Below, piece by piece: positions 1,520 through 23,604 of a stretch of 23,604 nucleotides of DNA. The notes below the pieces were generated by a model. That model was not told where the DNA came from. It ran no database searches and worked only from the letters and a program-made list of their open reading frames with translations. Every line of letters begins with the position of its first letter. The first letter of the stretch is position 1. This stretch comes from a virus (taxonomy: Duplodnaviria; Heunggongvirae; Uroviricota; Caudoviricetes), in the IMG/VR virus record IMGVR_UViG_2529292985_000014, positions 1-23,604 of that record; one strand, written 5' to 3'. The position numbers were made by a program, and so were the translations under genes.

Positions 1520-1521
1520 GG

Positions 1522-9471: not shown

Positions 9472-9495
9472 AAAAAGCCCCGACCAGGCCGGGGC
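9471..9495. terminator. Hairpin terminator, functional mainly on the minus strand
   Basis: A-tract 9471-9476, stem GCCCCG (9477-9482) pairing with CGGGGC (9490-9495). The minus strand gets hairpin plus U6. The plus strand has no T-run after the hairpin. Confidence 0.5.
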
Positions 9496-9573
9496 ATCAC
9501 GCTTCAAGTCACGATCCAATCATTACCGACTATATCAGCCGTCGATAAATCAACTTCCCGGATCTGGAGTCCA

Positions 9574-9798
9574 TCAGTGTGCCTCCGCAATGCTGGGATT
9601 GGTAATATTGCGATACCAGGGATTAGTGTTTGGTTGTGGGGAAGTAGAGAAACGACCAGTAAGAACACCATACTGATCAGGGATCAGAGAACGGGCTTCT
9701 TTTTCGGTTGCGGCAATTGCGAAGTGATCGCAGTGTTTTTGCAGGGAGTGGAAACGCCAGATGAATTCTGGACGTGAGCAAGGATTGGCATTAACCAT
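9574..9798 (-). CDS. Hypothetical 74-aa protein
   Basis: ATG start with GAGG about 9 nt upstream. Minus-strand terminator about 80 nt downstream. No recognisable domain. Could be spurious. Confidence 0.3.
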   Translation of the reverse strand: MVNANPCSRPEFIWRFHSLQKHCDHFAIAATEKEARSLIPDQYGVLTGRFSTSPQPNTNPWYRNITNPSIAEAH

Positions 9799-10211
9799 AG
9801 TTACGGCCTCACTAACAGGTTTAACAACCTGCTACCCGCTGTCAAACAGGTGGCAGGACGTGACAGGGTTGACAGACTGGCGTTAGTGAAACCAGCAGGC
9901 CGAAGCCTCCCCATCACGCCCCACCATAATTCGGGCGTAACGCGGTTTACGGACACAAAAATACCGCAATATCGGAAATCTGCGGTTGTCCGCACTAACA
10001 TTCAGGCTGTCAAACCTGGTCGCAGAATTTGCTACGACGGCATGAATATAAGCCTGAAAACATGGAAGATCAACTAAAAATTTCAGCAATGGATGACTTC
10101 AGTCGATGATGCAGATCATACATTCCGATTTAGAAACAGAAAATTAATTTTCTAATACAAATCATCGAGCGAGCATTTGCCGATCATTGGGATGTTTTGT
10201 AGGCACACAGG

Positions 10212-11174
10212 TCATCCCCTAAATCCCGCAGGGATTGACCAATCCTCCCGGTCAAATTCAGACCGATAGCCACGCTGTTTCATCAGGTCAAAGGCTTCAC
10301 CAATGGTTGCACACCCCTGGGAGCCAGAATAATCCATTGAGAAATCCAGGGCACTGGATTGTTTAGGCTTATTCACTGCGGTAGCGGCACTACGTATCCA
10401 TGCAAATTTTTTTGCCAGCTTTTCAGCGGTACGATACAGAGCCTGCCGTTTTGCGTGCCCCTCGTCTGAACGACGCTTTGCAGCTCTCGCTTTTGCCGCC
10501 GCCAGGCAGCGGTTGGTATGTTCTTCCCTGATTACTGGTTTTTTATCCAGCACCCCATTATCCGCTTGAGAACTATCTGCTGGTGAAGCCTTTGGCTGAA
10601 CCGCGCATGATCTTTCTCTTCTTTTTGCTATAGAGTGACTCTTATTTTCTATTGGCTGTTCATTTTGAACATGGGGGGACTTGTTCAAAATGAACAGGGG
10701 GTTCCCAGTTTCAAAAAAATAACGAACCTTTGAAATCAACTGCTTAACCAGTTTTGTGGCGTTGGCAAATTTGATGCCCTGCTTACCCCCTATCTCCATT
10801 GCTGCATGAATGAAGTGGAGAAATTGTGTCGTAAACCGATATACGTTACACACCTGGGCATTGTTATTCGCTACCTGATGTTGCCTAACAAGCATTCCGC
10901 ACTTCGTCGCTTCAGCAAATGCCCGGCGTACAGTAGAAATACTGCGTCCTGTAATCTCGGACATATCAGCATATGAGCGACGGATCATGTATTCATCGGT
11001 AGCCCCTGCCAGGTTGGCGAACTCGGCAATAATAGCGCTATGTGAAGGGGAAAGAAGACCGCTATGACGAGCAAAAAAACTCAACTGATGACCTTTGATT
11101 TTTTTGTGGTATTCAGTGTTGTTTTTATACTCAGAAGTGTTGAAAGTTACTGAAACTGAATTTAAAATATTCAT
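10212..11174 (-). CDS. Hypothetical DNA-binding protein with HTH-like segment and basic central region
   Basis: 320-aa ORF with ATG start. HTH-like MSEITGRSISTVRRAFAEATKCGMLV. Lys/Arg-rich stretch AKARAAKRRSDEGHAKRQ. Contains the paired palindromes at 10658-10702 in its linker region. Confidence 0.5.
   Translation of the reverse strand: MNILNSVSVTFNTSEYKNNTEYHKKIKGHQLSFFARHSGLLSPSHSAIIAEFANLAGATDEYMIRRSYADMSEITGRSISTVRRAFAEATKCGMLVRQHQVANNNAQVCNVYRFTTQFLHFIHAAMEIGGKQGIKFANATKLVKQLISKVRYFFETGNPLFILNKSPHVQNEQPIENKSHSIAKRRERSCAVQPKASPADSSQADNGVLDKKPVIREEHTNRCLAAAKARAAKRRSDEGHAKRQALYRTAEKLAKKFAWIRSAATAVNKPKQSSALDFSMDYSGSQGCATIGEAFDLMKQRGYRSEFDREDWSIPAGFRG
10658..10702. repeat. Two adjacent palindromes TGTTCA-TTT-TGAACA and TGTTCA-AAAA-TGAACA, each followed by a G-run, inside coding sequence
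   Basis: Read directly: 10657-10705 is CTGTTCATTTTGAACATGGGGGGACTTGTTCAAAATGAACAGGGGGTT. It encodes ...NPLFILNKSPHVQNEQP... of the 320-aa protein. Confidence 0.6.
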
Positions 11175-11224
11175 CAGATAGTTCCGTGAAAAAATCTATC
11201 TACCGTATAAATCTATGCCAGTGG

Positions 11225-11234
11225 ATTTATACAC
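11225..11234 (-). promoter_or_regulatory. Candidate extended -10 element (GTGTATAAAT on the minus strand) for the 320-aa gene
   Basis: Lies between the terminator at 11236-11269 and the ATG at 11174. Weak; prediction by eye. Confidence 0.2.
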
Positions 11235-11235
11235 C

Positions 11236-11269
11236 AAAAAGCCGCTTCTCAGCGGCTTTTGCTTTTTTT
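11236..11269. terminator. Bidirectional rho-independent terminator
   Basis: A5 at 11236-11240, stem AAGCCGCT (11239-11246), loop TCTC, stem AGCGGCTT (11251-11258), then TTGCTTTTTTT. About 100 nt downstream of the 332-aa gene stop. Confidence 0.6.
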
Positions 11270-11328
11270 GGCAGTCGCTACCGGAGCAGTGACCGCGATC
11301 CTACTCGATCACATCGGACAGAATCAAC

Positions 11329-11346
11329 AGTGTATATAAATACACT
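11329..11346. promoter_or_regulatory. 18-bp AT-rich perfect palindrome AGTGTAT-ATAA-ATACACT (operator-like or -10-like)
   Basis: Read directly. Geometry GTGT-N8-ACAC resembles a LexA box (CTGT-N8-ACAG) but the outer conserved C/G positions are swapped. Sits between the 332-aa gene stop and the terminator. Confidence 0.3.
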
Positions 11347-11374
11347 ATGTTAGAAATTTAATTTCATTCTGCGG

Positions 11375-12373
11375 TTATGCCCGTCGTGAAACGAAGAGTA
11401 ATGGGGTAGTATTTTTGCTCTCCTTCGGCGATAACTCCGGCTCTTTCTTGCCTGATATCGGCAAGCCATAAGTCGCATTTGCCCCCAGTGATTCAAGCAT
11501 CGCAGCCACTATGCGAGCATCATCTTCAGACTGCATACGGCAGAGCGCCCGGCGCTGTTCTGCGCTAATAAAAACAGGCATTTCCTGGATAGCGTCACGC
11601 AAAATCCGGCGGCATTGCTTTGCATTTTCCCCCTGGCTTTCCATCATCGCTGTTTGAGTGCGCAGCTTATCTCGAAGCTGTATGTTTTCCACTTCAAGGA
11701 GCATCAATTCTGACTCAAGGGCTTCACGCTGTGCTGACTCGAAAATAGCCTGCTGATTCTTCATTGCTGAAAAGTGGTGAACAAGATCCGTAGCCGCGTT
11801 ATCGGTAAAACCTTGTTCGATAAGTGCCGCATGAATAGCCGCGTCGCGCTCTTCTGCTGATTCCAGCATCAGGCTTTTCTTGTCCAGACTGATATAGTTA
11901 GGCACAGTTACGTAATCAAAGCCGTGAAAAGACTTTACCAGGGATACAGATGAATCTGGGCCAGATGTAGCCCATGACCAACCACCCGCACCAGAATTAA
12001 TCATTCCCTGTACAATACGCCCGGTGTCTGTATCCAGTATTTCCTGCGTATGGGTAACAATGCCGTTGTCGTCAATCGAAATGTCGATAGTCCTGTTTGA
12101 TGGCACGTTCTCCAATACAACAGGTTTCCCATCAACCATCACAACAGAGACTTCCGGCAGGTTCAGGCTTTTCGTTTTGTTATAGTGCATCGCCCGGCGA
12201 CCATGACCGTAATAGCCATACATCTCACCAAGTGCGATACGCTCTTTTGTTTCTGGCGAGTTGAATGTGTCTCGCACCGACTGAATAACGTAATTTCGGT
12301 TGTTCTGCGGTGTGTGTTTGCGGATTTTCTCTACCAGGGAGAAGCGATCCGTAACAGTGTTCAGTGATTGCAT
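11375..12373 (-). CDS. Putative prohead protease / scaffold-like protein (possibly P1 Pro-like)
   Basis: 332-aa ORF: N-terminal globular part with Gly/Ser-rich GAGGWSWATSG, central coiled coil ALESELMLLEVENIQLRDKLRTQ, short C-terminal tail. The layout resembles prohead protease-scaffold fusions. Assignment is by architecture and neighbourhood only. Confidence 0.3.
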   Translation of the reverse strand: MQSLNTVTDRFSLVEKIRKHTPQNNRNYVIQSVRDTFNSPETKERIALGEMYGYYGHGRRAMHYNKTKSLNLPEVSVVMVDGKPVVLENVPSNRTIDISIDDNGIVTHTQEILDTDTGRIVQGMINSGAGGWSWATSGPDSSVSLVKSFHGFDYVTVPNYISLDKKSLMLESAEERDAAIHAALIEQGFTDNAATDLVHHFSAMKNQQAIFESAQREALESELMLLEVENIQLRDKLRTQTAMMESQGENAKQCRRILRDAIQEMPVFISAEQRRALCRMQSEDDARIVAAMLESLGANATYGLPISGKKEPELSPKESKNTTPLLFVSRRA

Positions 12374-12386
12374 TATTTCCCTCCGG

Positions 12387-14069
12387 TTAATTGCTCATCA
12401 CAAATTTTGCAAAGTTTATTAACTGTTCTGGCGTCCAGTTTTCCGGATCGTCACCGGACGACAACGGCGCGGATTCGTACATACCATGCTCGTTGTTTTG
12501 CTCTGATTCATTCGCCTTAAACTCTTTGATCATGGTGTTGAGAGTGTCATCGTCGATGTGCAACTGCTCGGTAAACAGATAACGCATAAACGCGTCACTA
12601 CCAGCCAGTTTCGGGTTGTTCTGGATCTGGTCCATAATTTGGGAGATGACAGCAACAAAGTTGGCGCGTGCATCCAGTTCCCGGTTTTCCTCTTCCTGAA
12701 TAGCAGTGTTCATTGAGTTGAATTGCACGTCATAAGGGCGGTTTTTTTCGGTGTAAACCTTGCCGTATTTATAAGCGAGGTGAATGTCCAGAAGCTGATA
12801 AATAGTTCGCTGGGCGGCCTGTCTGATCCAGTTCGCACGCAATGCAGCCTGGATAGCAGTTTGCTGCCAGCCGCCTTCTCCAAGCCCTCCGCTCATCTGA
12901 TCAGCCCAGCCAAGCATTGTTGCGTCAATGCCGAGGCTTGCAGCAAGCTGCCGGAGGTGAAACATAACGTCTTCGATACCACTGATATCTGCGGGTATGG
13001 ATTGCGTATCAATGGTGATGCCGTTCTTCCCGTCTCCCATAACAGGTATCAGATGGTTAAGCACAGTTGGAATAGCGTTGGCATTAATCGACCTTTGCGC
13101 CACCAGGTCACTATGACGCTTCAATGCCTGGCTGACGCCACGCGTATAGTTCGCCGCATTAACCGGGTCAAGTGTGTTCGTCGTAAGAGCAATCAGGCGG
13201 TCAATTTTGGCTGCATTATTTCGCGTTGATTTCAGCGCGGCGAGCGAAGCACATAAATTAAGGTAAGGTTCATAGCTGTATTCCAGGAATGAAGTTCCGT
13301 AATTCTGCGTCTCCATTAACGGCTTATCAGCTTGATCACTTAACAGTGAGTACCCTTTTGTGCCGTAGCTAACCGGAATAACTTTATGCTGTGGCGTCCA
13401 ATAGGGATTTTTCATGGAAACCAGATTCCACGGTTCGGTTATTACTCTGCGCAAACTATGCGTATCCAGGATGTAATCACCACTGAATCCAACCAGCTGG
13501 CTACCGCGATAAAATTCCTGGACGAAATGTGGCAGAGTGTAATAACTGGACTCAATGCCTGTTATCCCCCTGCCCTGTTCAGCATAAGGTCGGACATAAG
13601 ACACCCCAAAGATCGCCATGATCATGGCCCATGAAGGAAGTCCGTCATTAATCATCGCCCCCAAATCAGCGGTTAACTCTTCACATCTACTTACTGCCTC
13701 GGCATCGGAACCATCCTTTGGCGAAAGGATGAATGCCTGTCCGTTTTTTTTTGAAGGCGCAAGCGCATGTGCAATGTGAATGTTTAAAGCCGTCGAGATA
13801 GTCGGGCTTTTAGCCATCGTTTCCAGGATGTTGTACTTTTGCAGGCGCTCGCCGGGCAGTTCAGCGGATAAAGAAATTGAATCTGCCTCACTCGTCATGC
13901 CATCGCTATTGCTCCCCAGGATGCCTGGACGTAAAGCAGACAGGCCGGAACGAGCAACGACACTATGTCCGCTCGTAAAAACGACCGGATCGGCGGGCGT
14001 AACATCACCACCGTTGAAGGCTTTCTTCAATGCTGACAGAAAGCCTTTGTTTTTGTCTTTCGTTGCCAT
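12387..14069 (-). CDS. Putative portal-like virion structural protein
   Basis: 560-aa ORF with ATG start preceded by GGTGA. Size and acidic C-terminus fit a portal protein. It directly precedes the protease-like gene. No diagnostic motif verified. Confidence 0.3.
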   Translation of the reverse strand: MATKDKNKGFLSALKKAFNGGDVTPADPVVFTSGHSVVARSGLSALRPGILGSNSDGMTSEADSISLSAELPGERLQKYNILETMAKSPTISTALNIHIAHALAPSKKNGQAFILSPKDGSDAEAVSRCEELTADLGAMINDGLPSWAMIMAIFGVSYVRPYAEQGRGITGIESSYYTLPHFVQEFYRGSQLVGFSGDYILDTHSLRRVITEPWNLVSMKNPYWTPQHKVIPVSYGTKGYSLLSDQADKPLMETQNYGTSFLEYSYEPYLNLCASLAALKSTRNNAAKIDRLIALTTNTLDPVNAANYTRGVSQALKRHSDLVAQRSINANAIPTVLNHLIPVMGDGKNGITIDTQSIPADISGIEDVMFHLRQLAASLGIDATMLGWADQMSGGLGEGGWQQTAIQAALRANWIRQAAQRTIYQLLDIHLAYKYGKVYTEKNRPYDVQFNSMNTAIQEEENRELDARANFVAVISQIMDQIQNNPKLAGSDAFMRYLFTEQLHIDDDTLNTMIKEFKANESEQNNEHGMYESAPLSSGDDPENWTPEQLINFAKFVMSN

Positions 14070-14133
14070 GAATCACCGCAAATTGTTTCCAGTTTTGCGG
14101 CAGCATAATCAGTATGTGATTTCAGCGGTTGGT

Positions 14134-15531
14134 TTAGTTTTCTGTACGGCAATTATTTGGAACTGTAGAATTTTCAAACATAGCAAAGTTCAGACCTTTC
14201 CCTTCGCCAAATTCACCCTCAATTTCATCAGATACAGCAGACAAAATACTACGCAGATCAACATCGCCACCGCCGAACATATCGCCCAATGCCTGTTGTT
14301 TATGAGTCAGCTCGTCGTTGATTTTTTGCGCCATTTTTTTGAATGCTGCCCCCATACGCTTCGCACTGCGATTATTTGCTACGATGAATAGCGCCAATGC
14401 CTCAGCTTCCGGTGTACTGTCGCCGAATAACCCCCTTTGGGCGATCACTTCTTCAACGGCCTGACCGTTGTCTTTGGCTTCACGTACAAGATTAATTGCT
14501 TCCTGGAGTGCTGCTATCGCCTGTGTATCCAGGCCATTAACCTGCTCTATACCGTCCACTAAGCCTGTTACTGCGTCATGGTGAGCGTCGCCAGACAGCG
14601 ACTGCATTTGCGCAAAATCGCTGGCTGCCGTATTTAATGCGATCAGGATATTACGCATTTCCGGATCTGGCTCTTCCGACACCAGCCGAACAAGCCTTTC
14701 ATCCTTGTACGCTTTGGCAAAAATTGCATTCTGGATGCGATCGATAAGCTGTTTCGTGGGACGCCCATCGGCAGTAAGCAAGCCTGCCGTCGCTGTATCG
14801 CCAATTTCGCGCAAAAACGCACGAATAAACGCATCATTGGACCGCGCCAGCAGGTTTCCATCATCTGAAGGATTAAATAGCGCCATGACGCTCTCAGTGA
14901 GAAATTGCGCATCCGCATACGCTTTTTCACTTGCTGCCATCTCTTGCAGATCACTAATGTTTGAATCGCGGGCAAATTGAGCGCGGTCTACATCTGTGAG
15001 TCTTTCTCGCACCAGTACGGGCATAGACATTTGCGAAATTTCGTCAGGATTCAGACCAAACTCTTTCGCATGGTCGATCAGGTACTGGCGATACTCATCC
15101 GCCTGTCCTTGCTCATAGGCACGCCAGATACCCATACTCCTTCCGTTGCCGGATTCAACAACGTTGTCCGGACCAACTATCGGCGCTCCATGGCTGCTCA
15201 TACCGGAATCCGTTAATTGTGCCGGGCGTAAATCGGAGGCAATACGGTTAACCTGGAGTTTGCTGGATAGCCGGGTACGATCTCGTGGTTGGAGTTCTTC
15301 CGGGAAGGCCGGGTTAATCGTACCGTCAAGGTTGTTCGAAATGATTAGACTGCTGGCATCAACGACCTTAAAAGCCGTCTTTACCTCTGCGCCTTTGCTG
15401 GTGACTACGTAGCTACTTCGCCCCATGCGTGTTTCTTTCCTCTCTAATGAAGAAACCAGAGCAATGACGCTGTTAATATCTGCGGCCTCGGAAAGCGCAG
15501 AAGTAACTGATTTGTTCAAAATACACTCCAA
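14134..15531 (-). CDS. Hypothetical alpha-helical protein, possibly a virion internal protein (downstream of the DdrA-like gene)
   Basis: 465-aa ORF. Track start is TTG 15531. An alternative TTG at 15519-15517 has GGAG 6 nt upstream. No motif recognised. Confidence 0.35.
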   Translation of the reverse strand: MECILNKSVTSALSEAADINSVIALVSSLERKETRMGRSSYVVTSKGAEVKTAFKVVDASSLIISNNLDGTINPAFPEELQPRDRTRLSSKLQVNRIASDLRPAQLTDSGMSSHGAPIVGPDNVVESGNGRSMGIWRAYEQGQADEYRQYLIDHAKEFGLNPDEISQMSMPVLVRERLTDVDRAQFARDSNISDLQEMAASEKAYADAQFLTESVMALFNPSDDGNLLARSNDAFIRAFLREIGDTATAGLLTADGRPTKQLIDRIQNAIFAKAYKDERLVRLVSEEPDPEMRNILIALNTAASDFAQMQSLSGDAHHDAVTGLVDGIEQVNGLDTQAIAALQEAINLVREAKDNGQAVEEVIAQRGLFGDSTPEAEALALFIVANNRSAKRMGAAFKKMAQKINDELTHKQQALGDMFGGGDVDLRSILSAVSDEIEGEFGEGKGLNFAMFENSTVPNNCRTEN

Positions 15532-15588
15532 CTATAGAGAAAGCTGTGAGTGTAAAAAGAGTGTGATTTATGTGAGAACAGAGAAGTG

Positions 15589-15611
15589 AAAGGGGGATTC
15601 CACCCCCTTTT
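15589..15611. terminator. GC hairpin AAAGGGGG-ATTCCA-CCCCCTTT between the DdrA-like and 465-aa genes
   Basis: Read directly. Followed by TTTTG on the plus strand and TTTC on the minus strand. A TATAGT -10-like hexamer lies just downstream on the minus strand. Could be an attenuator or partial terminator. Confidence 0.3.
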
Positions 15612-15613
15612 GA

Positions 15614-15982
15614 TTACCCGGCATAACCGTTGGCTTTCACCCAGCTTATGGTCTGTTCTTTAGCCTGCTCCAACGTAAGGAACTCGCCAACATAGTTTGA
15701 GATCCCACGCAGCGCATCAATAAATTCCATTTGTGTGGACTTTGTGAACACACCGCCCAGGAAGTCAGTCACTATCTTAGGGACTTCATCTACAACAGGA
15801 TCAGTCTGTTGTTGCGGTTCCGCTGCCGGTTGCGCGGCAGTCCCCAGGCCCAATTTCAGCATCACATCAACAATCTGCTTACCAATGGTGACGCGTTGCA
15901 ATACTGGCGCAGTTTTCTGCGCCTGCATTAGATCTGATAGCTCTTTACCTAATTTCAGGCGGTCTAAAACAGAGATGGTCAT
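15614..15982 (-). CDS. DdrA-like small protein encoded directly downstream of the DarA-like gene
   Basis: 122-aa ORF. Its ATG overlaps the upstream stop (TAATG), indicating coupling. Assignment by position only. Confidence 0.4.
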   Translation of the reverse strand: MTISVLDRLKLGKELSDLMQAQKTAPVLQRVTIGKQIVDVMLKLGLGTAAQPAAEPQQQTDPVVDEVPKIVTDFLGGVFTKSTQMEFIDALRGISNYVGEFLTLEQAKEQTISWVKANGYAG

Positions 15983-17907
15983 TAAGCACCTCCCTGCTGA
16001 ATTTCAGCCAGAATGTTGATCAGGTAGTCAACTGCTGCACCCACAGTGGCTTCGTTCTCGTCGTATCGACCTGCACTGATTAGAGCATTTGCTGCTTCCT
16101 GTACATGATCAAGTTCAGTACTGATGACCGTCAGATCGCGGGATGTAAACTGCTCCGGCACGGATTTCAGGTACTCCAGCGCTTTATCTGCCTCCTGATC
16201 AGCTTCACTTGCTGATTCACCCGCTTCTTCTGGTTCCGGCTCCTGTTCTGGTGCTGGTTGTGGTTGTGATTCTGGCTCAACCACATGCTCTGTTTTTACT
16301 TCGCTTGAATAATTTTGAAGGGCGTTATACACGTCCATAATGAAAAGGTTCTCCCCATCACCAAGTGGATACGCCACGTTTGGAAACGCTTTGCGGAAAA
16401 GAATTTTCACTTGCGCCTTGAATGTTTTCAGGTCACTGCCAAACAGGTCCACATAGCCATCAATATGTTTAGACATGCTGGACACAACCAATTGGCCTGC
16501 AAAATCTTTCAGCTCATCTTCATCAGGAAGATAGAGCAACTCGTACTGGCTGACTTCTTTATCTGTCAGTTTACGGTCATACGTAATGATACCGTGACGA
16601 GCATATCCGTAATACTGATCAGCCTGGTCAGGACGATCAAGCACGGCTTTATTTCCATCCGGCACAGCACCAACACCAGCCGGGCGAGATTGAAGTGCAT
16701 AGTGGTATTTACCTACATCTTGGCTCTCTGGTTGTGATACTGGGTTCGTCTCGGGGGCTGTCTGTGGTGGTTCGGAGTCTTCCTGCTGGCCTGGTAACAC
16801 ATCAACTTTATATTTATCTGCGTTATGCTCTCGGTAGGCTTTAAGTAATTTGGTTGCAGCATCTGCCAAACTGCCTCCTTTGACAGCACTGGCATCAATA
16901 CTGAATTTACCTTCAGGTGCTACTATCGTAACGAAATTGTCACTGCCGGACGTGACATAATTAACTTCAGCGCCATTATCCAGCACTGTTTTTCCGTCAA
17001 TGGCAAGATTATGTTTTACATGTCGCAGCTGGTCACTAAACGCTCGCTCCTTCGTTTTTTCACCTTTAGCAGACAACAATTTATCGCGTTTTTCTTGTAA
17101 TTCCTCGTTGATGGCTTTCTGGGCATCAAGTTTTTTTTGCATCTCCGTAAGAGCAGCACGCTTTTCAGTCAGCCCACGTTGCGCAACGTCCACCTGATCA
17201 ATTGTTATTGACCGTTCTTCTGCCAGTTTATCTGCTTCATTGAGATAACTCTCAATATCTGCCTTCATTTTGTCCTGGCGCTCTTTTGCTTTCTTAAACT
17301 TTTCGCTGTTACGCTCAATCAAATTAGATAGCGCCTGGCATACCTGGCTTAAAGAAACATCTCTCCCACCAATCGGGGCGACAACGTGAGTTACGTTACG
17401 CTTATTAAGTAAAAACTGAAATGCAACAAGCTCGTCGTTACTCTTTATTTTTGCCCCGTCAGCTGTTGGAGAGTGGAAAATTATGCTTGTACTCTGCCCG
17501 TCAGTAAGCGGTATCTGCGCGGTCAAAACAGGGATATTAGCTACCCGACGTACACGACCGATAATCGCACCACCAATACAATTACGTCCATTTTCATCGG
17601 TCCCGGCTTCATCAGTCCCTGCCATAATATTCGTACCATTCAGGCCACGATTCAGCGCACGGACGAAAGCTCGCATTGTTTGAGCTAACCGAATTCTGGT
17701 TGTAGTTATGGACTCAAACATAGCTTCGTCAGACACAACCAGAATTTCATTGCCCATATAGGCAAGCTCAATATCTTCTAAGGTCGCCGCCTCAAAAATC
17801 AGGTCATCTTCGCTTAATTCTTCTGAAGACCAGCGACCTGGCATATAGCCGGGGATCGTATCAGCAAAAGTAGACTGAATATTAATTCGTAAAGGATTGT
17901 TAATCAT
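15982..17907 (-). CDS. darA: DarA-like internal head / anti-restriction protein
   Basis: Track ORF is 654 aa from 17946. ATG at 17907 has GGAGG 6 nt upstream and overlaps the upstream stop (ATGATTAA), giving 641 aa. Long coiled coil (KFKKAKERQDKMKADIESYLNEADKLAEE...) and acidic Pro/Glu-rich low-complexity segment (EPESQPQPAPEQEPEPEE). Sits after holin, LydB-like and Hdf-like genes, as I recall for the P1 darA operon. Confidence 0.5.
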   Translation of the reverse strand: MINNPLRINIQSTFADTIPGYMPGRWSSEELSEDDLIFEAATLEDIELAYMGNEILVVSDEAMFESITTTRIRLAQTMRAFVRALNRGLNGTNIMAGTDEAGTDENGRNCIGGAIIGRVRRVANIPVLTAQIPLTDGQSTSIIFHSPTADGAKIKSNDELVAFQFLLNKRNVTHVVAPIGGRDVSLSQVCQALSNLIERNSEKFKKAKERQDKMKADIESYLNEADKLAEERSITIDQVDVAQRGLTEKRAALTEMQKKLDAQKAINEELQEKRDKLLSAKGEKTKERAFSDQLRHVKHNLAIDGKTVLDNGAEVNYVTSGSDNFVTIVAPEGKFSIDASAVKGGSLADAATKLLKAYREHNADKYKVDVLPGQQEDSEPPQTAPETNPVSQPESQDVGKYHYALQSRPAGVGAVPDGNKAVLDRPDQADQYYGYARHGIITYDRKLTDKEVSQYELLYLPDEDELKDFAGQLVVSSMSKHIDGYVDLFGSDLKTFKAQVKILFRKAFPNVAYPLGDGENLFIMDVYNALQNYSSEVKTEHVVEPESQPQPAPEQEPEPEEAGESASEADQEADKALEYLKSVPEQFTSRDLTVISTELDHVQEAANALISAGRYDENEATVGAAVDYLINILAEIQQGGA

Positions 17908-18520
17908 GCTCATCCTCCAGGCGCGCGATTTCTTCTTTAAGAGCACGTGTCTTAGCTACTTCCTGAGACAAGGCAGCTTTAACGTTACCCGTATCTTGCA
18001 TTACTTTGTCTGACTTGCTCTGGAGTTTAGACAGTTTGTCGTTAGCATTAGCGATATCTTCACGGAGTGCATCACGTGATTCTTTCGCTTCAGCTAATTT
18101 CTGAGCGTTGGATTTAACTCCCTGCCGCTTCTTATTTTCGTCATCAATATTTTTTGCTGCACGAGCAAGTTTTCGAGCTAATGACTTCTGGAAAGAAGTT
18201 GCTCCGCGATTAAATAAAGCCGCAAGAGATTGCCCCAAAGCCGACATTGTTTTTACTGGCTTGAACGGTACTGTTTTACCATTCAGTTTGATCCCAGATA
18301 TATCACCGGTATCGTTAACCTGAACTTCCATTGTCTGTTCATCAAGACCAATAAGGGTAAACGTGCGCGTCATGATCCCATCTTTCTTCCTGCCATTACT
18401 TGCAGGGATCACCCTCGCTATCTTGTAACCACCTTTGCTGATTTCTTTGACGAGTTTTGCCAGCCCCTTTTCGTTTAACTCATCATAATTAAGAAGAACA
18501 TAATTATTCTTATTTGACAT
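17900..18520 (-). CDS. hdf: Hdf-like protein (homolog of a DarA fragment)
   Basis: Likely start ATG 18520 with AAGGAGG 5 nt upstream (the track GTG 18535 is less likely). Segment SALGQSLAALFNRGATSFQKS resembles DarA-like LSQVCQALSNLIERNSEKF, and both are followed by a coiled coil. Confidence 0.45.
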   Translation of the reverse strand: MSNKNNYVLLNYDELNEKGLAKLVKEISKGGYKIARVIPASNGRKKDGIMTRTFTLIGLDEQTMEVQVNDTGDISGIKLNGKTVPFKPVKTMSALGQSLAALFNRGATSFQKSLARKLARAAKNIDDENKKRQGVKSNAQKLAEAKESRDALREDIANANDKLSKLQSKSDKVMQDTGNVKAALSQEVAKTRALKEEIARLEDEHD

Positions 18521-18956
18521 CCCAGCCTCCTTCACGCTTTTCGATCGTAAACTGGCGCTCTATGCAGTCATTGATAGGGAAAATGCGATAAAGCGGATTC
18601 AGTCGGCAGTTACCGTTAGTCAATGTGACTTTCAGATCCCACTTCGTTGGCTCAAGATATTTCGTATCGATGAGCAAATACTCTTCTCTCTCACCGCGTT
18701 TTGAGGCGTCAACTGGTCGTGTTTTCCCTGAAATAACCACAGATGGATTTTTCAGGTCTTGCAACCAATATTCGATTTGAGCATTGCTGACCCAGCTTCG
18801 CTTAACACGTAGCGAAACAGGAAATGCTATAGCAGATTCTTTCACTACAGCGTCACCAATACTCAAAATCTCAACACTCTTGCGACGAAAAATGAAACGG
18901 TCAATGATGGCAACAAATGCCATGATAAAAATGAAATAATTCCCAAAGTTACCCAT
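18510..18956 (-). CDS. LydB-like membrane-anchored protein (candidate antiholin or lysis regulator)
   Basis: 148-aa ORF. ATG overlaps the holin stop (TAATG). N-terminal hydrophobic segment NYFIFIMAFVAIIDRFIF followed by a soluble domain. Confidence 0.45.
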   Translation of the reverse strand: MGNFGNYFIFIMAFVAIIDRFIFRRKSVEILSIGDAVVKESAIAFPVSLRVKRSWVSNAQIEYWLQDLKNPSVVISGKTRPVDASKRGEREEYLLIDTKYLEPTKWDLKVTLTNGNCRLNPLYRIFPINDCIERQFTIEKREGGWDVK

Positions 18957-19282
18957 TATTTCTCTCCACCTTTTCCCCCATTCGCTATTACGCTTAAGAG
19001 ATTCAAGACGTTACTAGCTCTGGACTTCAAGCCCTGTAAAATTTCTCTTCCGTTGTTACTGGCAATCAGAACAACGCAGAAAATGATACCTTCAGGCCAT
19101 TCCTGGCTAACCGCCACCCCATACCCCGCAAGCCCGGCTGTTACCGCAGTAAACAATTCACTCGCAAGATTGAGCAGGGACGCAGAAATGCGCCCGTCTC
19201 TAACTCCGAGAAGGAATACGCCGGTTCCACTTAGTAGGGATGTTATGACTACTACAGCCAGATTTTCATAATCTGCAAACAT
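18956..19282 (-). CDS. lydA: Holin (LydA-like), three predicted transmembrane segments
   Basis: 108-aa ORF with strong SD GGAGGGG before the ATG. Hydrophobic stretches LAVVVITSLLSGTGVFLLGV, LFTAVTAGLAGYGVAV and IIFCVVLIAS. Basic C-terminus. First gene of the operon. Confidence 0.55.
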   Translation of the reverse strand: MFADYENLAVVVITSLLSGTGVFLLGVRDGRISASLLNLASELFTAVTAGLAGYGVAVSQEWPEGIIFCVVLIASNNGREILQGLKSRASNVLNLLSVIANGGKGGEK

Positions 19283-19294
19283 ACCCCTCCAGAA

Positions 19295-19325
19295 ATAACA
19301 TCTAATGCGCCACTAACTTAGTCAG
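19295..19325 (-). promoter_or_regulatory. Candidate late-type promoter for the lydA-darA operon: palindrome ACTAAGTTAGT upstream of a -10-like TTAGAT
   Basis: On the minus strand the 11-bp palindrome (plus 19311-19321) is centred about 11-12 bp upstream of TTAGAT (plus 19299-19304). There is no -35 hexamer. This matches my recollection that P1 late promoters carry an inverted repeat centred near -22 instead of a -35. Confidence 0.3.
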
Positions 19326-19387
19326 TTTGTTATTTCCTTACAGGACATCTTCTAAAATCTCCCTCCTTAACATACAAGGGGGAACAT

Positions 19388-19948
19388 ATGCTTATTGGAT
19401 ACATTCGCGTATCAACTAATGACCAAAACACAGCTTTACAACGAAACGCCCTTGAAAGCGCAGGATGTGAGCTAATTTTTGAGGATAAGGCGAGCGGCAA
19501 AAAGGCTGAACGCCCTGGGTTAAAAAAGGTTCTCCGTATGCTTTCCAGAGGTGACACCCTGGTCGTATGGAAGTTAGATCGTCTTGGGCGCAGTATGCGT
19601 CACTTGGTTGTGCTGGTGGAAGAGCTTCGTGACATAGGCATTAACTTCCGGAGTCTCACTGACTCCATCGACACCAGTACACCAATGGGGCGCTTTTTCT
19701 TTCACGTAATGGGGGCGCTGGCAGAAATGGAACGTGAGCTTATCGTTGAACGTACACGCGCTGGACTTGATGCGGCTCGCGCAGAAGGTCGTATAGGTGG
19801 GCGTCGGCCTAAATACCAAGAAGAAACATGGCAGCAAATGCGGCGATTGCTGGAGAAGGGAATCCCCCGTAAGCAGGTTGCAATCATCTATGATGTGGCT
19901 GTTTCCACGCTTTATAAGAAGTTTCCGGCGTCATCATTTCAATCCTAA
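19388..19948 (+). CDS. cin: Cin/Gin/Hin-family serine DNA invertase
   Basis: 186-aa ORF. N-terminal MLIGYIRVSTNDQN with the catalytic Ser. Conserved VVWKLDRLGRS and FHVMGALAEMERELI. C-terminal HTH GIPRKQVAIIYDVAVSTLYKK. SD AAGGGGGAA before the ATG. Confidence 0.85.
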   Translation: MLIGYIRVSTNDQNTALQRNALESAGCELIFEDKASGKKAERPGLKKVLRMLSRGDTLVVWKLDRLGRSMRHLVVLVEELRDIGINFRSLTDSIDTSTPMGRFFFHVMGALAEMERELIVERTRAGLDAARAEGRIGGRRPKYQEETWQQMRRLLEKGIPRKQVAIIYDVAVSTLYKKFPASSFQS

Positions 19949-19965
19949 ACCTTGGTTTAAGAGAA
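19940..19965. other. cix-like recombination crossover site
   Basis: CAATCCTAAACC-TT-GGTTTAAGAGAA: two imperfect 12-bp inverted half-sites around a 2-bp core at 19952-19953. About 9 of 12 matches per half-site to the gix/hix-type half-site TTATCCAAAACC as I recall it. Overlaps the cin stop codon (19946-19948). Confidence 0.5.
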
Positions 19966-19995
19966 CTCGGTACCAGCGGTGAAAAGATCCCCCTG

Positions 19996-22857
19996 TTGAG
20001 CACGGCTAACACATGGAGTTCACGCCAGACTTTCAACGGCGGGATCACCGGGGCGCTGACAGGGAACGCCGACACCGCGACGAAACTTGCGACGGCAAGA
20101 AACATCAACGGTGTTAAATTTGATGGTTCTGTGGACATTTCGATACCAACAATTACGTCCAGAGGGCGTGTTACTGCGCTCACCGGTACAACACAAGGTG
20201 CTGCTACTGGATTGCAAATGTATGAGGCGTACAACAACGGCTATCCTTCTGTTTACGGGAATGTGCTTCATCTTAAGGGCGCAACGGCAGTTGGTGAAGG
20301 TGAGTTGTTCATAGGTTGGAGCGGTACAAGTGGCGCTCATGCACCTGTACATGTACGTTCGCGACGAGATACTGATACAGCCAGTTGGTCAGAGTGGGCG
20401 CAGGTCTACACATCGAAGGATTCCATCCCTGGTGTAAATACCACGGGCAACCAGAACACAACCGGAAACGCGGCGTCTGCAACGAAATTACAAACGGCAA
20501 GAACTATTGGTGGTGTTTCATTTAATGGCACCGCAAACATCGACCTGCCGGGCGTGAATAAAACAGGCAATCAGAGCACTACCGGCAATGCAGCTACAGC
20601 CACAAAACTGCAAACAGCACGCACCATTAATGGGGTTTCATTTGACGGAACGGCTAATATTTCTCTGTCACCGGCAAATATTGGTTGCCCGGCATCTCCT
20701 ACTGGTTGGCTTGAAACAGGTGATAATGGAGCATCAATAACAACAGAGCAATTAGTGACTCTGCTACGAGATAATGGTGCTTTTAATGCAAAGGTATGGA
20801 TAGCGCGTTGTGCCTGGGCGTATGCAAATAGTGCATCCATACCAGACAGCGAAACAGGATGCGGCATTATTCCACTGGCGGGTGCTGTGATAGAAGTATT
20901 CAGCAATAATACCAACAATTACACCATTCGAATAACAACGGCAACGACGACAAGTGTATCTGGCGCACTCACTAATGCTGAATTTATCTATGTGTCTAAT
21001 GGCACAAGTTATTCACCAGGATGGCGCAGAGCGTATAACACTAAAAACAAACCTACTGCGGCTGATGTCGGAGCTTTACCACTATCTGGAGGAGCGTTAA
21101 CTGGCGGATTAACTGCTGCTGGCGAGATTATTTCCAAATCGGCGAATGGTCTGCGCATTGCCTATGGCAACTATGGATTCTTTATCCGAAACGATGGTTC
21201 AAACACATATTTCATGTTGACCGATTCGGGTAACAGCCTGGGAACCTATAATAGGTTAAGGCCGCTTATCATTAACAATGCCAATGGTACTGTTACGATC
21301 GGTAATGGACTCAATGTTACTGGCGGCATCAATGGTAGTTTGAACGGTAATGCTTCAACAGCTACGAAGTTGCAAACTGCTAGAAAAATAAGCGGCGTGT
21401 CTTTTGATGGTTCTGCTGATATAACACTAACAGCTGAAAATGTATCTGCTTTTGCTCGACGCGCTACTGGAACTTATGACGATACTAGTGGTGCGGTCCC
21501 GTGGAATGCCGAATCAGGTGCGTATAATGTTACACGCTCCGGGGCTTCTTATATCGTTGCAAATTTTTATACAGGCGTAGGTAGTTGTCGGACTCTCCAA
21601 ATCCGAGCGCATTATAAAAATGGTGGATTGTATTACCGTTCATCACGTGATGGCTATGGGTTCGAAGAGGACTGGACTCAGATATATACTAAAAAAGACA
21701 GCATCCCTGGTGTGAATACAACTGGTAATCAGAACACTACTGGCAATGCTGCAACTGCAACAAAACTGCAAACAGCACGCACAATAGGCGGAGTGTCATT
21801 CGATGGTAGTGCCAATATCGACCTGCCAGGTGTGAATAAAACAGGTAATCAGAACACTACCGGTAATGCAGCGACAGCGACCAAGTTGCAGACAGCATGT
21901 ACTATCAACGGCGTCTCGTTTGATGGTTCTAAAGATATTGAACTTAACCCACGGTCTATAGGCACGATCAACTCCACAACAATGTCTTTTAGTGGTGGTG
22001 CTGGATGGTTCAAACTGGCAACTGTAACCATGCCACAGGCCAGTTCCGTGGTTTACATAAGCCTGATTGGTGGTGCAGGGTTTAACGTTGGCTCCCCGCA
22101 GCAAGCAGGCATCTCTGAGCTGGTTCTGCGTGCAGGAAATGGAAATCCAAAAGGTATTACTGGTGCATTATGGCGACGGACCTCGGTTGGATTTACTAAT
22201 TTTGCATGGGTGAATACATCCGGTGATACCTATGATGTTTATGTTGAAATAGGTAATTACGCCACAGGTGTTAATATTCAGTGGGATTATACCAGTAACG
22301 CCAGCGTAACGATTCATACATCACCAACTTATACAGCGAATAAACCAACAGGCCTGACAGATGGAACTGTATATGTAATTTACAGTTCGCACATTAAACC
22401 GACTGCTGCTGAGGTTGGGGCGTTGTCATTATCTGGCGGTCAATTGAATGGTGCACTGGGCATCGGAACATCCAGTGCTCTTGGTGGTAACTCGATTGTT
22501 TTGGGTGATAATGACACGGGATTTAAACAAAATGGCGACGGGTATCTGGATGTTTATGCTAATAACGTCCATGTTATGCGCTTTGTCTCCGGCAGTATTC
22601 AAAGTAATAAAACCATAAATATTACAGGTCGTGTTAATCCCTCAGATTACGGTAACTTTGATTCCCGTTATGTGAAAGATGTTCGCCTGGGTACGCGTGT
22701 TGTTCAATTGATGGCGCGTGGTGGTCGTTATGAAAAAGCCGGACACGCAATTACCGGATTAAGAATCATTGGTGAAGTAGATGGCGATGATGAAGCCATC
22801 TTCAGGCCAATACAAAAATACATCAATGGCACATGGTATAACGTCGCACAGGTGTAA
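19996..22857 (+). CDS. Tail-fibre variable cassette (Sv-type C-terminal part of tail fibre protein S), currently not fused to a constant part
   Basis: 953-aa ORF that the track starts at TTG with no SD. The same frame is open upstream to 19918, across the cix-like site. At least six copies of the phage fibre repeat GNA-x-TATKLQTAR-x-I-x-GV-x-FDG. Confidence 0.75.
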   Translation: MSTANTWSSRQTFNGGITGALTGNADTATKLATARNINGVKFDGSVDISIPTITSRGRVTALTGTTQGAATGLQMYEAYNNGYPSVYGNVLHLKGATAVGEGELFIGWSGTSGAHAPVHVRSRRDTDTASWSEWAQVYTSKDSIPGVNTTGNQNTTGNAASATKLQTARTIGGVSFNGTANIDLPGVNKTGNQSTTGNAATATKLQTARTINGVSFDGTANISLSPANIGCPASPTGWLETGDNGASITTEQLVTLLRDNGAFNAKVWIARCAWAYANSASIPDSETGCGIIPLAGAVIEVFSNNTNNYTIRITTATTTSVSGALTNAEFIYVSNGTSYSPGWRRAYNTKNKPTAADVGALPLSGGALTGGLTAAGEIISKSANGLRIAYGNYGFFIRNDGSNTYFMLTDSGNSLGTYNRLRPLIINNANGTVTIGNGLNVTGGINGSLNGNASTATKLQTARKISGVSFDGSADITLTAENVSAFARRATGTYDDTSGAVPWNAESGAYNVTRSGASYIVANFYTGVGSCRTLQIRAHYKNGGLYYRSSRDGYGFEEDWTQIYTKKDSIPGVNTTGNQNTTGNAATATKLQTARTIGGVSFDGSANIDLPGVNKTGNQNTTGNAATATKLQTACTINGVSFDGSKDIELNPRSIGTINSTTMSFSGGAGWFKLATVTMPQASSVVYISLIGGAGFNVGSPQQAGISELVLRAGNGNPKGITGALWRRTSVGFTNFAWVNTSGDTYDVYVEIGNYATGVNIQWDYTSNASVTIHTSPTYTANKPTGLTDGTVYVIYSSHIKPTAAEVGALSLSGGQLNGALGIGTSSALGGNSIVLGDNDTGFKQNGDGYLDVYANNVHVMRFVSGSIQSNKTINITGRVNPSDYGNFDSRYVKDVRLGTRVVQLMARGGRYEKAGHAITGLRIIGEVDGDDEAIFRPIQKYINGTWYNVAQV
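20403..20690 (+). repeat. Internal tail-fibre module, copy 1
   Basis: Encodes YTSKDSIPGVNTTGNQNTTGNAASATKLQTARTIGGVSFNGTANIDLPGVNKTGNQSTTGNAATATKLQTARTINGVSFDGTANISL. Near-identical at protein level to copy 2, diverged at synonymous positions. Confidence 0.7.
21684..21965 (+). repeat. Internal tail-fibre module, copy 2
   Basis: Encodes YTKKDSIPGVNTTGNQNTTGNAATATKLQTARTIGGVSFDGSANIDLPGVNKTGNQNTTGNAATATKLQTACTINGVSFDGSKDIEL. Lies 1281 bp downstream of copy 1, in frame. Confidence 0.7.
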
Positions 22858-23388
22858 ATGATGCAGCATTTAAAAAATATTAAGTCTGGAAATCCTAAAA
22901 CAAAAGAACAATATCAGCTAACAAAGAATTTTGATGTTATCTGGTTATGGTCCGAAGACGGAAAAAACTGGTATGAGGAAGTGAAAAACTTTCAGCCAGA
23001 CACAATAAAGATTGTTTACGATGCAAATAATATTATTGTCGCCATCACCAAAGATGCCTCCACGCTTAACCCTGAAGGTTATAGCGTCGTTGAGGTTCCA
23101 GATATTACAGCCAACCGCCGCGCTGATGATTCCGGTAAGTGGATGTTTAGGGACGGAGCTGTGGTTAAACGGATTTATACGGCAGACGAGCAACAACAAC
23201 AGGCCGAATCACAAAAGGCCGCATTGCTTTCCGAAGCTGAATCAGTCATCCAGCCGCTGGAACGCGCTGTCAGGCTGAATATGGCAACAGACGAGGAGCG
23301 CACACGACTGGAAGCATGGGAACGCTACAGCGTTCTTGTAAGCCGCGTGGATACGGCAAAGCCAGAATGGCCACAAAAACCTGAGTAA
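22858..23388 (+). CDS. Tail fibre assembly protein (U / Tfa-type chaperone)
   Basis: 176-aa ORF. ATG abuts the tail-fibre stop (TAAATG). C-terminus ...[27 protein letters not shown] is typical of Tfa-family proteins. Confidence 0.7.
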
Positions 23389-23415
23389 AAATAAGGCCCG
23401 ATAACGGGCCTTTTC
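23389..23415. terminator. Bidirectional terminator between convergent tail-fibre assembly genes
   Basis: A-tract, stem GGCCCG (23395-23400), loop ATAA, stem CGGGCC (23405-23410), then T-rich run. Fills the gap between the two convergent stops at 23388 and 23416. Confidence 0.6.
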
Positions 23416-23604
23416 TCATTCTGGTTGTTCGGGAAACGTTACTGGCAGGATGGAGGTATCTGTAGATTCTACTTTCTGCGCATATAGCATCCACGCGGTT
23501 AATTTCTGTTTATTCTCATCGGAAATGATGCCCAGCCGTAGCTGTGAGTCCCACAGTTGGGTTTTATCCCTGACAAGTTGCAATAGGCTTTGCTTTTCAT
23601 TTTC
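23416..23604 (-). CDS. Partial second tail fibre assembly gene (U'-type), 3' end only; 5' end lies beyond the window
   Basis: Reverse-complement translation of 23416-23604 gives 63 codons with no stop: ENEKQSLLQLVRDKTQLWDSQLRLGIISDENKQKLTAWMLYAQKVESTDTSILPVTFPEQPE. It ends with the same W-x-Y...V...P-E-x-PE pattern as U. Not in the ORF track because the start is outside the window. Confidence 0.65.
   Translation of the reverse strand, partial: ENEKQSLLQLVRDKTQLWDSQLRLGIISDENKQKLTAWMLYAQKVESTDTSILPVTFPEQPE

Follow-up and report, generated by a model that had tools for sequence, protein, structure and literature searches.

The closest described relatives of the locus analyzed here are the C-segments of the phages P1, P7, and D6, which combine an invertase gene (cin), the crossover sites cixL and cixR, a constant part (Sc) and alternative variable parts (Sv and Sv') of the tail-fibre gene S, and the chaperone genes U and U'. 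The order cin, cixL, cassette, chaperone gene, and converging chaperone gene is the same in all three. Their variable cassettes measure 1.60 and 1.56 kb in P1, 1.57 and 1.35 kb in P7, and about 1.6 kb in D6, and cassettes of about 1 kb are carried by the G-segment of Mu and by the Hin-type invertible fibre segment of the Yersinia phage vB_YpM_39. The Min multiple-inversion region of plasmid p15B was reportedly described by Sandmeier, Iida, and Arber between 1990 and 1992. It has a P1-related backbone, a Din-family invertase, and six crossover sites, and its fibre 3' ends are built from shuffled segments.

The DNA under study, referred to below as the window, is a stretch of 23,604 nt whose 3' end, at 23604, lies inside a converging chaperone gene, with cixR, Sc, and the partner cassette located beyond the contig. 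It shares with the P1/P7/D6 C-segment the gene order, cixL, the place of the putative enhancer, and a cassette in frame with Sc, and is close to these phages in Cin (98.4% identity), in the fibre tip and chaperone (87–97% to P1 S and U), and in its backbone, positions 1–19400 being 92% identical to phage D6 at 100% coverage. It departs from them in the length of the cassette, which is 2.9 kb here as against 1.35–1.6 kb. The cassette protein has a 100% identical record in Shigella dysenteriae CDC 74-1112. The element is very probably a D6-like (P1-related) plasmid prophage of that strain, with the cassette forming the cin-proximal silent arm of a Cin-invertible C-segment and owing its length to mosaic assembly. 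The cassette is read as such an arm because cin is intact, cixL is that of P1, the cassette has no start of its own and fuses in frame to Sc, and a chaperone gene of the P1 U type lies downstream. The variable tail-fibre cassette proposed in the first-pass annotation is supported, and the inversion system to which it belongs is of the Mu/P1 type. The locus adds an allele to a system already known, and no new mechanism emerges from it.

Anatomy of the probable invertible switch

The cin gene (19388–19948, plus strand) encodes a serine DNA invertase of 186 aa that matches the Pfam Resolvase (E = 3e-50) and HTH_7 families, and the identity of 98.4% applies to the Cin proteins of both P1 and D6. 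Within its 5' part lies a putative recombinational enhancer (19406–19477, plus strand), which is 94% identical to the P1 segment annotated as 'enhancer of Cin-mediated C-segment inversion' and is offset by 18 nt into cin in both elements; by homology, it would be expected to serve the same function. The cixL crossover site (CAATCCTAAACC TT GGTTTAAGAGAA; 19940–19965) is 26 bp long with imperfect dyad symmetry, overlaps the cin stop codon, and shows no differences from cixL of P1 or of D6. It is the sole match in the window at three or fewer mismatches, where none is expected, and it obtains the highest position weight matrix (PWM) score, 26.4 bits, while shuffled sequence reaches 18.3 at best.

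The crossover point, which presumably falls between 19952 and 19953, defines the start of the silent variable 3' cassette of gene S (19953–22857, plus strand), which comprises 967 codons and a stop and has the layout of a P1 C-segment. The 953-aa open reading frame given in the first-pass annotation (19996–22857, with a TTG start) is present, as are its six repeats; the coding cassette, however, begins at the cix crossover, with codons from 19954, and not at the TTG at 19996. The reading frame is open through all 967 codons, and no promoter-like site was found 5' of the cassette. Joined in silico to Sc of the D6 type, the cassette yields an open reading frame of 1372 aa, and joined to P1 Sc one of 1421 aa, neither of which contains a stop before its end. 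From these fusions and from homology with P1, it may be inferred that Cin would invert the DNA between cixL and cixR, the latter outside the contig, and so place the cassette in frame with Sc, the constant 5' part of gene S. The resulting fibre of about 1372 aa would be assembled with the co-inverted U-type chaperone.

That chaperone, a tail-fibre assembly protein of 176 aa orthologous to P1 U, is encoded at 22858–23388 on the plus strand (Pfam Caudo_TAP, E = 2e-37); its amino-acid identity reaches 97% with P1 U and 94% with D6 U, as opposed to 55–57% with U'. A bidirectional terminator-like hairpin (23393–23412), with an 8-bp stem containing six GC pairs and with T-runs on both strands, lies between this gene and the second, converging chaperone gene. 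The latter is of the U' type and is represented by its 3' end, 62 codons and a stop translated from the minus strand (23416–23604), before the contig end cuts it; the fragment aligns with the 3' end of P1 U' (L002, positions 6174–6362). The position beside cin would suggest an Sv'/U' label, but the tip and chaperone compare as P1 S/U type, and the cassette is therefore named here by position, as cin-proximal and silent.

It is extremely unlikely that this silent copy has passed out of use and is a decaying, non-functional remnant. In the orientation of the assembly the cassette is silent, and related plasmids are known in which cin is frameshifted and the fibre locked, but here none of the 967 codons is interrupted, synonymous changes far outweigh those that alter the protein, cin is intact, cixL and the enhancer are conserved, and the chaperone gene is intact at 97% identity to P1 U.

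Repeats and domains of the cassette

In the cassette, a 78-nt repeat was found six times (at 20061, 20463, 20583, 21345, 21741, and 21861), along with a 257-nt repeat pair (20392–20648 and 21670–21926, 75% identity). In the protein, the 78-nt copies correspond to six repeats of about 40 codons, R1 to R6, and the motif A.[KQR]L...[RCK].[ILV].[GNL]..[FLV].G occurs six times, as against no occurrence in 20,000 protein shuffles. The cassette matches 33 PHROG families piecewise; the majority carry a tail-fibre or tail-protein annotation, and the remainder are of unknown function.

The blocks, all on the plus strand, begin with R1 (20026–20145), a 40-codon fibre repeat (GNAxTATKLxTARxIxGVxFDGSxxI) recognized, like the other R repeats, by repeat search. 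It is followed by insert X (20143–20409), about 89 aa without a family match or Pfam hit, and by module 1 (20428–20667), in which R2 and R3 stand in tandem at a spacing of 40 aa. The head domain D1 (20665–21039) is of the Mu S'/P1 S' kind: residues 204–374 of the cassette match residues 169–328 of Mu S' (PDB 8JU3, E = 7e-28), and residues 1–373 are 62% identical to residues 1–358 of P1 Sv'. The KPTAADVGALPLSGG motif and neck T1, a T4 gp34-type C-terminal trimerisation domain, then occupy 21040–21309; the match to Pfam PF21446 (E = 1.4e-32; 113 bits against a cut-off of 27) spans residues 339–441 of the 968-aa query, and T1 also matches Mu S (5YVQ), T4 gp34 (4UXE), and 5NXF in the PDB.

The second half opens with R4 (21310–21429) and insert X' (21427–21687), which is gp37_C-like (Pfam PF12604, E = 2e-6), resembles residues 324–406 of Mu S', and constitutes the second matched stretch of 8JU3 (E = 7e-20). 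Module 2 (21706–21945), with R5 and R6 in tandem, is succeeded by head domain D2 (21943–22431), which is beta-rich, has no Pfam or PDB match by sequence, and is nearly invariant across 41 aligned homologues. The cassette ends in neck T2 and the distal tip (22432–22857), the former sharing homology with T1 (hhalign probability 98%, E = 1.6e-13) and the latter being like the tips of P1, D6, and Mu S. Unlike in Mu, where cassettes are about 1 kb, domains known from both alternative Mu fibres are found here in one polypeptide, D1 and X' matching S' (gp52, 8JU3) and the neck and tip matching S (gp49, 5YVQ).

The first-pass annotation placed two modules at 20403–20690 and 21684–21965, which proved right to within a few bases, and described them as a duplicated unit of about 285 bp. 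Two such RR modules do exist, but the repeated architecture exceeds 285 bp, with both halves of the cassette sharing the layout R, insert, R-R, head domain, KPTAAxVGALxLSGG, and neck. As the annotation had noted, the modules are very similar in protein and differ at many synonymous positions: they share about 89% protein identity as against 75% DNA identity (92% aa and 75% nt for R2/R5; 85% aa and 74% nt for R3/R6). Over 100 aligned codons, third positions account for 62 of the 92 differences, the proportion of synonymous differences (pS) is 0.82, and dN is 0.15. Since the synonymous sites are saturated, the modules do not represent a recent repeat, again in agreement with the annotation; they are paralogues of old standing, maintained because purifying selection acts on their protein sequence. 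Their DNA is now too diverged, with a longest in-register identical run of 14 nt, so that the two are unlikely to recombine readily together. The gap in GC3 between the modules (0.44 and 0.39) was considered as a sign of foreign origin and rejected as not informative.

Probable mosaic origin and possible inner exchange

The annotation's description of the cassette as unusually long holds against cassettes of the P1, P7, D6, and Mu type (1.0–1.6 kb) but not among S proteins with the cix-encoded motif. In a survey of the nearest 120 protein clusters, 76 carried this motif, and the variable part measured 900–1150 aa in 72 of them (900–949 aa in 48, 1000–1099 aa in 16, and 1100–1149 aa in 8), with four to ten repeats each and a mode of seven. 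The long S genes of P1/D6-like plasmid prophages of E. coli and Shigella (NZ_CP076307, NZ_CP066033/NZ_CP077480, NZ_CP195379, and MH422554) follow the same R/RR repeat grammar, contain the same blocks at 86–100% DNA identity together with inner inverted repeats, and have variable parts of 0.7–1.15 thousand aa (about 2.1–3.4 kb). In NZ_CP076307, the cin-proximal cassette measures 2.8 kb and has the same layout. These genes differ from the present one in the order and number of blocks, and none spans at least 80% of the cassette. Among 50,697 phage records, 72,556 plasmid records, and 5,426 E. coli genomes, no record covered at least 80% of the region and the exact combination of blocks was not detected.

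Similarity to other elements changes along the cassette. Positions 20059–21308 are 96% identical to MH422554, another punavirus, and over module 1 (20413–20692) the identity to its S gene is complete (280/280); this similarity stops after 21308, save for a short piece at 22448–22564 (76%). Positions 21049–21930 are 92.5% identical to NZ_CP195379, in which the block order is permuted, and positions 21742–23604 are 95.5% identical to NZ_CP066033; both of these plasmids also contain modules with 93% identity to module 2. Finally, positions 21970–23604, which comprise the last 0.9 kb of the cassette and the chaperone gene, are 93% identical to Yersinia phage vB_YpM_39. Mosaic acquisition, which the annotation had raised, fits these data: the identity of each module to its counterparts elsewhere (100% and 93%) is far above that between the two modules of this gene (75%). 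Recombination at the modules, also proposed there, is in keeping with the similarity end points: of 20 such points, 13 have an R repeat no more than 30 nt away, as against 33% expected (binomial P = 0.003), a count that comes from related, non-independent loci and in which the repeats can themselves end BLAST alignments. The KPTAA motifs coincide with further end points (21049 and 22424).

The length of the cassette very probably reflects a string of blocks that elsewhere form whole cassettes. The proximal unit, R1-X-R2R3-D1-neck, has relatives at the start of each P1 cassette, of which Sv' is the closer; a linker block, R4-X'-R5R6, follows; and the distal unit, D2-neck-tip with the chaperone gene, corresponds at 93% DNA identity to nearly all of the variable cassette of about 1 kb of the Yersinia phage, which has its own invertible fibre segment. 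In P1 S, by comparison, about 90 aa separate the first neck from the tip, as against about 435 aa here (R4-X'-R5R6-D2-neck T2). Together with the KPTAAxVGAL motif, the repeats R and RR probably serve as homology patches, at which exchange between different fibre genes joined, inserted, deleted, and re-ordered blocks.

The colinear architecture of the two halves, and the homology of their R and RR repeats, KPTAA motifs, and necks (T1/T2 hhalign probability 98%), might instead go back to a whole fibre unit of about 1.3 kb (R, insert, RR, head, neck) that was duplicated in tandem in situ long ago and later diverged, without blocks from other fibre genes. Such an origin appears improbable. The inserts X and X' show no significant similarity by BLASTP or hhalign, nor do the heads D1 and D2; the nearest relative of each block sits in a different element, at 93–100% identity; among relatives, the order and copy number of these blocks vary; and NZ_CP066033 is without the X'+R piece, its single R aligning to both R4 and R5.

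Mosaic assembly at conserved junctions has a parallel in a system from a 1998 publication cited in PMC10879196, in which conserved motifs likewise lie on either side of variable blocks and mark the points of recombination; that system involves other motifs and another phage group, and here the junctions lie inside an invertible segment. The practical value of the present locus is modest, as a clean annotated example of P1/D6-like phage-plasmids making long fibres from few reusable blocks that meet at conserved repeats. Chimeric fibres might be engineered at two kinds of junction, the R repeats and the KPTAAxVGAL motif.

Exchange may also occur within such cassettes. NZ_CP066033 and NZ_CP077480 are 97,453-bp plasmid isomers that differ by more than an inversion between cixL and cixR: an exchange has taken place within an inner inverted repeat homologous to window positions 21118–21457, inside 197 identical bases, and a further segment has been inverted at a quasi-site located where an R repeat ends. 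These differences would be expected if internal crossover sites let the invertase shuffle sub-segments of the long cassette, as in the Min system of p15B, with which the locus shares a P1-related backbone, a Din-family invertase, and fibre 3' ends made from shuffled segments. For the present cassette, however, multiple inversion of this type is quite improbable. Against the six crossover sites of p15B, the window has a single cix site at three or fewer mismatches, rather than more than two internal ones; neither a pattern search nor a PWM scan of the cassette gave internal cix-like sites above chance, the best candidate (21182–21207) scoring 10.2 bits, under the mean best score of 11.7 in shuffles; and the quasi-site sequence of the related plasmids is not conserved in the window. 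Moreover, homologous recombination explains the exchange in the related plasmids equally well, since it lies within 197 perfectly identical bases.

Inner inverted repeats of 200–534 nt are present in three complete relatives, and neck T1 is their homologue, positions 21118–21457 being 92% identical to the inner inverted repeat of one related plasmid (L001). By analogy, it is conceivable, if on balance unlikely, that long two-unit cassettes of D6/P1-like elements form a two-level switch, in which Cin acting at cix would swap whole cassettes and recombination at the inner repeat, consisting of the conserved neck and the start of an R repeat, would swap only the distal unit with its chaperone gene. 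The inner exchange might be carried out by either the invertase or homologous recombination, and two cassettes could yield four fibres. Nested inversion in the related plasmids, if confirmed, would matter more than the allele itself because the fibre variants per prophage would double.

Repeats and host specificity

The first-pass annotation regarded the near-identical modules as likely receptor-binding determinants and substrates for host-range switching; on this view their duplication would tune host range. This reading could draw on the strong purifying selection on the modules and on their location in the variable part of the fibre gene, but it is very improbable. The R repeats and modules are the most conserved segments across fibres with different, unrelated tips, and a punavirus S gene with a copy of module 1 at 100% identity diverges from this cassette after 21308 (apart from the 76% piece at 22448–22564). 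The P1 homologue of R1-X-R lies within a 636-nt inverted repeat common to S and S', the two alternative fibres, which are identical over aa 1–654 (PMC9942202). Work with chimeras placed the host-range-determining region at the C-terminal region of such fibres (PMC9942202), and the tip and chaperone found here, of P1 S/U type, are better candidates.

R and RR probably serve in the shaft or as linkers, as conserved elements that double as exchange points, likely with a trimeric, intertwined beta structure, as suggested by their conservation pattern and by a weak similarity to Dec. In a sequence search of the PDB, the RR module had a single match, which lay in Dec of phage L, in the spike that its C-terminus forms as a trimer (6E3C, E = 0.05; PMC6449081). 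No Pfam or NCBIfam model matched the R repeat, and PF03406 (Phage_fiber_2, phage tail fibre repeat) gave no match for the cassette or the RR module even at an E limit of 10. Homologues bear precomputed PF03406 hits. Structure prediction, proposed earlier for the repeat modules, was run as an AF2 monomer of the whole cassette with a 42-sequence alignment and returned an unusable model (mean pLDDT 39.4, pTM 0.29, all R repeats below 50), in which insert X was the only stretch of moderate confidence (pLDDT 50–73).

The last 75 aa of the cassette, which form the tip, are 87% identical to the P1 S tip and 93% to the D6 S tip, as against 34% for S' tips, and match residues 425–503 of Mu S (5YVQ, E = 6.5e-15). 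The tip is homologous to those of P1 S and Mu S and is followed by a U-type Tfa gene. Host specificity most likely resides in this distal D2/tip region, together with the chaperone. D1, a head of the Mu S' type located in mid-fibre, may also bind a receptor.

The silent arm of a predicted invertible fibre segment

The cassette, the variable 3' end of tail-fibre gene S (19953-22857, + strand; 967 aa), is the well-preserved silent arm of a known switch and carries a mosaic fibre-end allele that is new. Its translated ORF is 100% identical to a Shigella dysenteriae CDC 74-1112 protein. Phage D6 aligns over the full length of bases 1-19400 at 92% identity, and the element is a D6-like, P1-related plasmid prophage. 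Directly upstream of the cassette lies an intact gene for the serine invertase Cin (19388-19948), with Resolvase and HTH_7 domains and 98.4% identity to P1 Cin. The P1 enhancer sequence within cin is 94% conserved, and its function is assigned by homology. The 26-bp crossover site cixL (CAATCCTAAACC TT GGTTTAAGAGAA; 19940-19965) overlaps the cin stop codon and is identical in P1 and D6; no second cixL-like site was found by pattern and matrix scans of the whole window. From the crossover onward the cassette frame is open, and in silico joining of the constant 5' part of S (Sc) to base 19953 gave uninterrupted proteins of 1372 aa with a D6-type Sc and 1421 aa with that of P1. No promoter-like site was found upstream of the cassette.

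Downstream is a Caudo_TAP chaperone gene (22858-23388), followed by the 3' end of a second, converging chaperone gene that is interrupted by the contig end. Between the two, a hairpin with a perfect 8-bp GC-rich stem and T-runs on both strands (23393-23412) is likely a bidirectional terminator at the centre of the invertible segment. This anatomy is the same as that of the P1, P7, and D6 C-segments, and the cassette is the arm adjoining cin, silent in this assembly state. Its last 75 aa share 87% identity with the P1 S tip and 93% with the D6 S tip, against 34% with S' tips; for the chaperone, identity is 97% with P1 U and 55% with U'. Tip and chaperone are thus of the S/U type, and the state of the window corresponds by homology to the orientation of P1 that stores the S-type end and expresses the other. 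The same draft genome must hold the partner cassette and Sc on a different contig. The contig breaks at 23604, 187 nt inside the converging chaperone gene and not at a cix site; we suspect that tfa-type genes repeated among the prophages of the genome caused the break.

Repeats and architecture of the cassette

A first-pass annotation had described an ORF at 19996-22857 with six fibre repeats and a duplicated module, and this description is correct, as shown by a repeat search of the window, module identities, and codon counts. The ORF is present as a mechanical reading frame; the search returned six copies of a 78-nt repeat (at 20061, 20463, 20583, 21345, 21741, and 21861) and a 257-nt pair (20392-20648 and 21670-21926) with 75% identity. 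At the protein level the repeat (R1-R6; 20026-20145, 20428-20667, 21310-21429, and 21706-21945) consists of 40 residues with the core GNAxTATKLxTARxIxGVxFDGSxxI, a motif occurring six times in the cassette protein and not once in 20,000 shuffles. The tandem pairs R2R3 and R5R6 make up the two modules, with 92% amino acid and 75% nucleotide identity between R2 and R5 and 85% and 74% between R3 and R6. Over 100 aligned codons, third positions hold 62 of the 92 differences, and the proportion of synonymous differences is saturated (0.82) beside a dN of 0.15. Identical runs between the modules reach at most 14 bases in register, or 23 when shifted out of it, and such short runs should guard against internal deletion.

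The cassette reads, in order, cix-encoded linker, R1, insert X, R2R3, head domain D1, KPTAADVGALPLSGG with neck T1, R4, insert X', R5R6, head domain D2, KPTAAEVGALSLSGG with neck T2, and tip. The two halves are colinear in element order, and the necks are homologous (hhalign probability 98%, E 1.6e-13); sequence and profile comparison detected no relatedness between X and X' or between D1 and D2. D1 lies within a stretch (aa 204-374) that matches Mu S' in PDB 8JU3, T1 matches Pfam Gp34_trimer (113 bits) as well as Mu S 5YVQ and T4 gp34, and X' is a gp37_C element matching Mu S' aa 324-406. D2 has no family match, and the tip lies within a stretch (aa 892-967) matching Mu S aa 425-503. Between neck and tip the cassette has about 435 aa, compared with about 90 aa in P1 S.

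The modules had also been proposed as receptor-binding determinants, a proposal that the comparisons do not support. They are the most conserved parts of fibres with unrelated tips, and the P1 homologue of R1-X-R lies inside a 636-nt inverted repeat common to both arms; S and S' of P1 do not differ over their first 654 residues (PMC9942202), so the region cannot account for what distinguishes them. The 40-residue repeat is widespread among enterobacterial phage fibres, matched no model in searches of Pfam and NCBIfam, and has as its sole solved-structure analogue the poorly resolved C-terminal spike of phage L Dec. On the strength of this conservation, the shared P1 region, and the weak similarity to Dec, we read single and paired repeats as parts of a shaft or linker, and also as patches of homology at which fibre genes exchange sequence, rather than as receptor-binding parts. 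The host-range-determining region of such fibres has been placed at the C-terminal region (PMC9942202), and here the distal D2/tip region, together with the chaperone, is the most likely determinant of specificity.

Mosaic origin and length of the cassette

Mosaic acquisition, one origin suggested for the modules at first pass, is supported in that the closest relative of each block is a different element. Positions 20059-21308 are 96% identical to the S gene of MH422554 (280/280 over module 1), 21049-21930 are 92.5% identical to NZ_CP195379, where cassette blocks occur in another order, and 21742-23604 are 95.5% identical to NZ_CP066033, which is without the X'+R piece and where a single repeat aligns to both R4 and R5. 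Positions 21970-23604 are 93% identical to Yersinia phage vB_YpM_39; in that phage, a Hin-type invertible segment has a variable cassette that consists almost entirely of this stretch, which also takes in the chaperone gene. The cassette protein matches 33 PHROG families piecewise. Strong similarity ended within 30 nt of a repeat at 13 of 20 end points against 33% expected (binomial P 0.003), although the loci are relatives of one another and a repeat may by itself terminate an alignment. Both KPTAAxVGALxLSGG motifs mark further end points. No record in the phage, plasmid, and E. coli genome collections covers at least 80% of the region, so that this combination of blocks is, so far, known from the Shigella contig alone.

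The cassette had been called unusually long, which is true only against the prototypes, P1 (1603 and 1558 nt), P7 (1567 and 1345 nt), and D6 (about 1.6 kb); the cassette of the Yersinia phage is about 1 kb. Among the 120 nearest protein clusters, 76 carry the cix-encoded motif, and their variable parts mostly span 900-1149 aa (900-949 aa in 48, 1000-1099 aa in 16, and 1100-1149 aa in 8) with 4 to 10 repeats, most often 7. NZ_CP076307 has a cin-proximal cassette of 2.8 kb with the layout seen here, and the S proteins of NZ_CP077480 and NZ_CP195379 reach 1439 and 1551 aa. By these comparisons, 967 aa and six repeats are average among relatives.

Related plasmids and other loci of the window

In NZ_CP195379 (3576-8932), which has the 1551-aa S gene, the chaperone gene is truncated, cin is frameshifted, and no alternative cassette is annotated; its fibre looks locked in one state. 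NZ_CP066033 and NZ_CP077480, both D6-like plasmids of 97,453 bp, are rearrangement isomers (6000-12250 of the former compared with 3200-9450 of the latter). Three rearrangements separate them. Beyond a cixL x cixR inversion, sequence has been exchanged inside an inner inverted repeat of 307 nt (197 nt perfectly identical) that encodes the neck together with the beginning of an R repeat. In addition, the stretch between cixL and a quasi-site, GGCGATATCAA|CATTAATACATTGG, located where an R repeat ends, is inverted, and this inversion disrupts the silent cassette of NZ_CP077480. MH422554 and NZ_CP076307 likewise have inner repeats, of 200-534 nt, and the window has a homologue at 21118-21457 (92%), where the best cix-like candidate of the inner region (21182-21207) scored no better than chance. 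The exchange in the isomers, the inner repeats elsewhere, and the window homologue are the basis for reading the locus as a two-level switch, which we regard as improbable.

Elsewhere in the window, a C4 antisense RNA (9846-9931, - strand; Rfam RF01695, 68.8 bits) and its a1/b1 target element (9999-10051, - strand; RF03163) form the P1-type immI immunity region, which is 93% identical to P1 c4/icd and here sits in a D6-like backbone. A 2305-aa ORF (1993-8910, - strand) with N6 DNA methylase, SNF2/ResIII helicase, and Helicase_C domains is read as an antirestriction protein of the DarB type; the corresponding part of D6 contains genes with the annotation 'defense against restriction'. DarA (15982-17946) and a DdrB-like gene (14134-15531) lie nearby.
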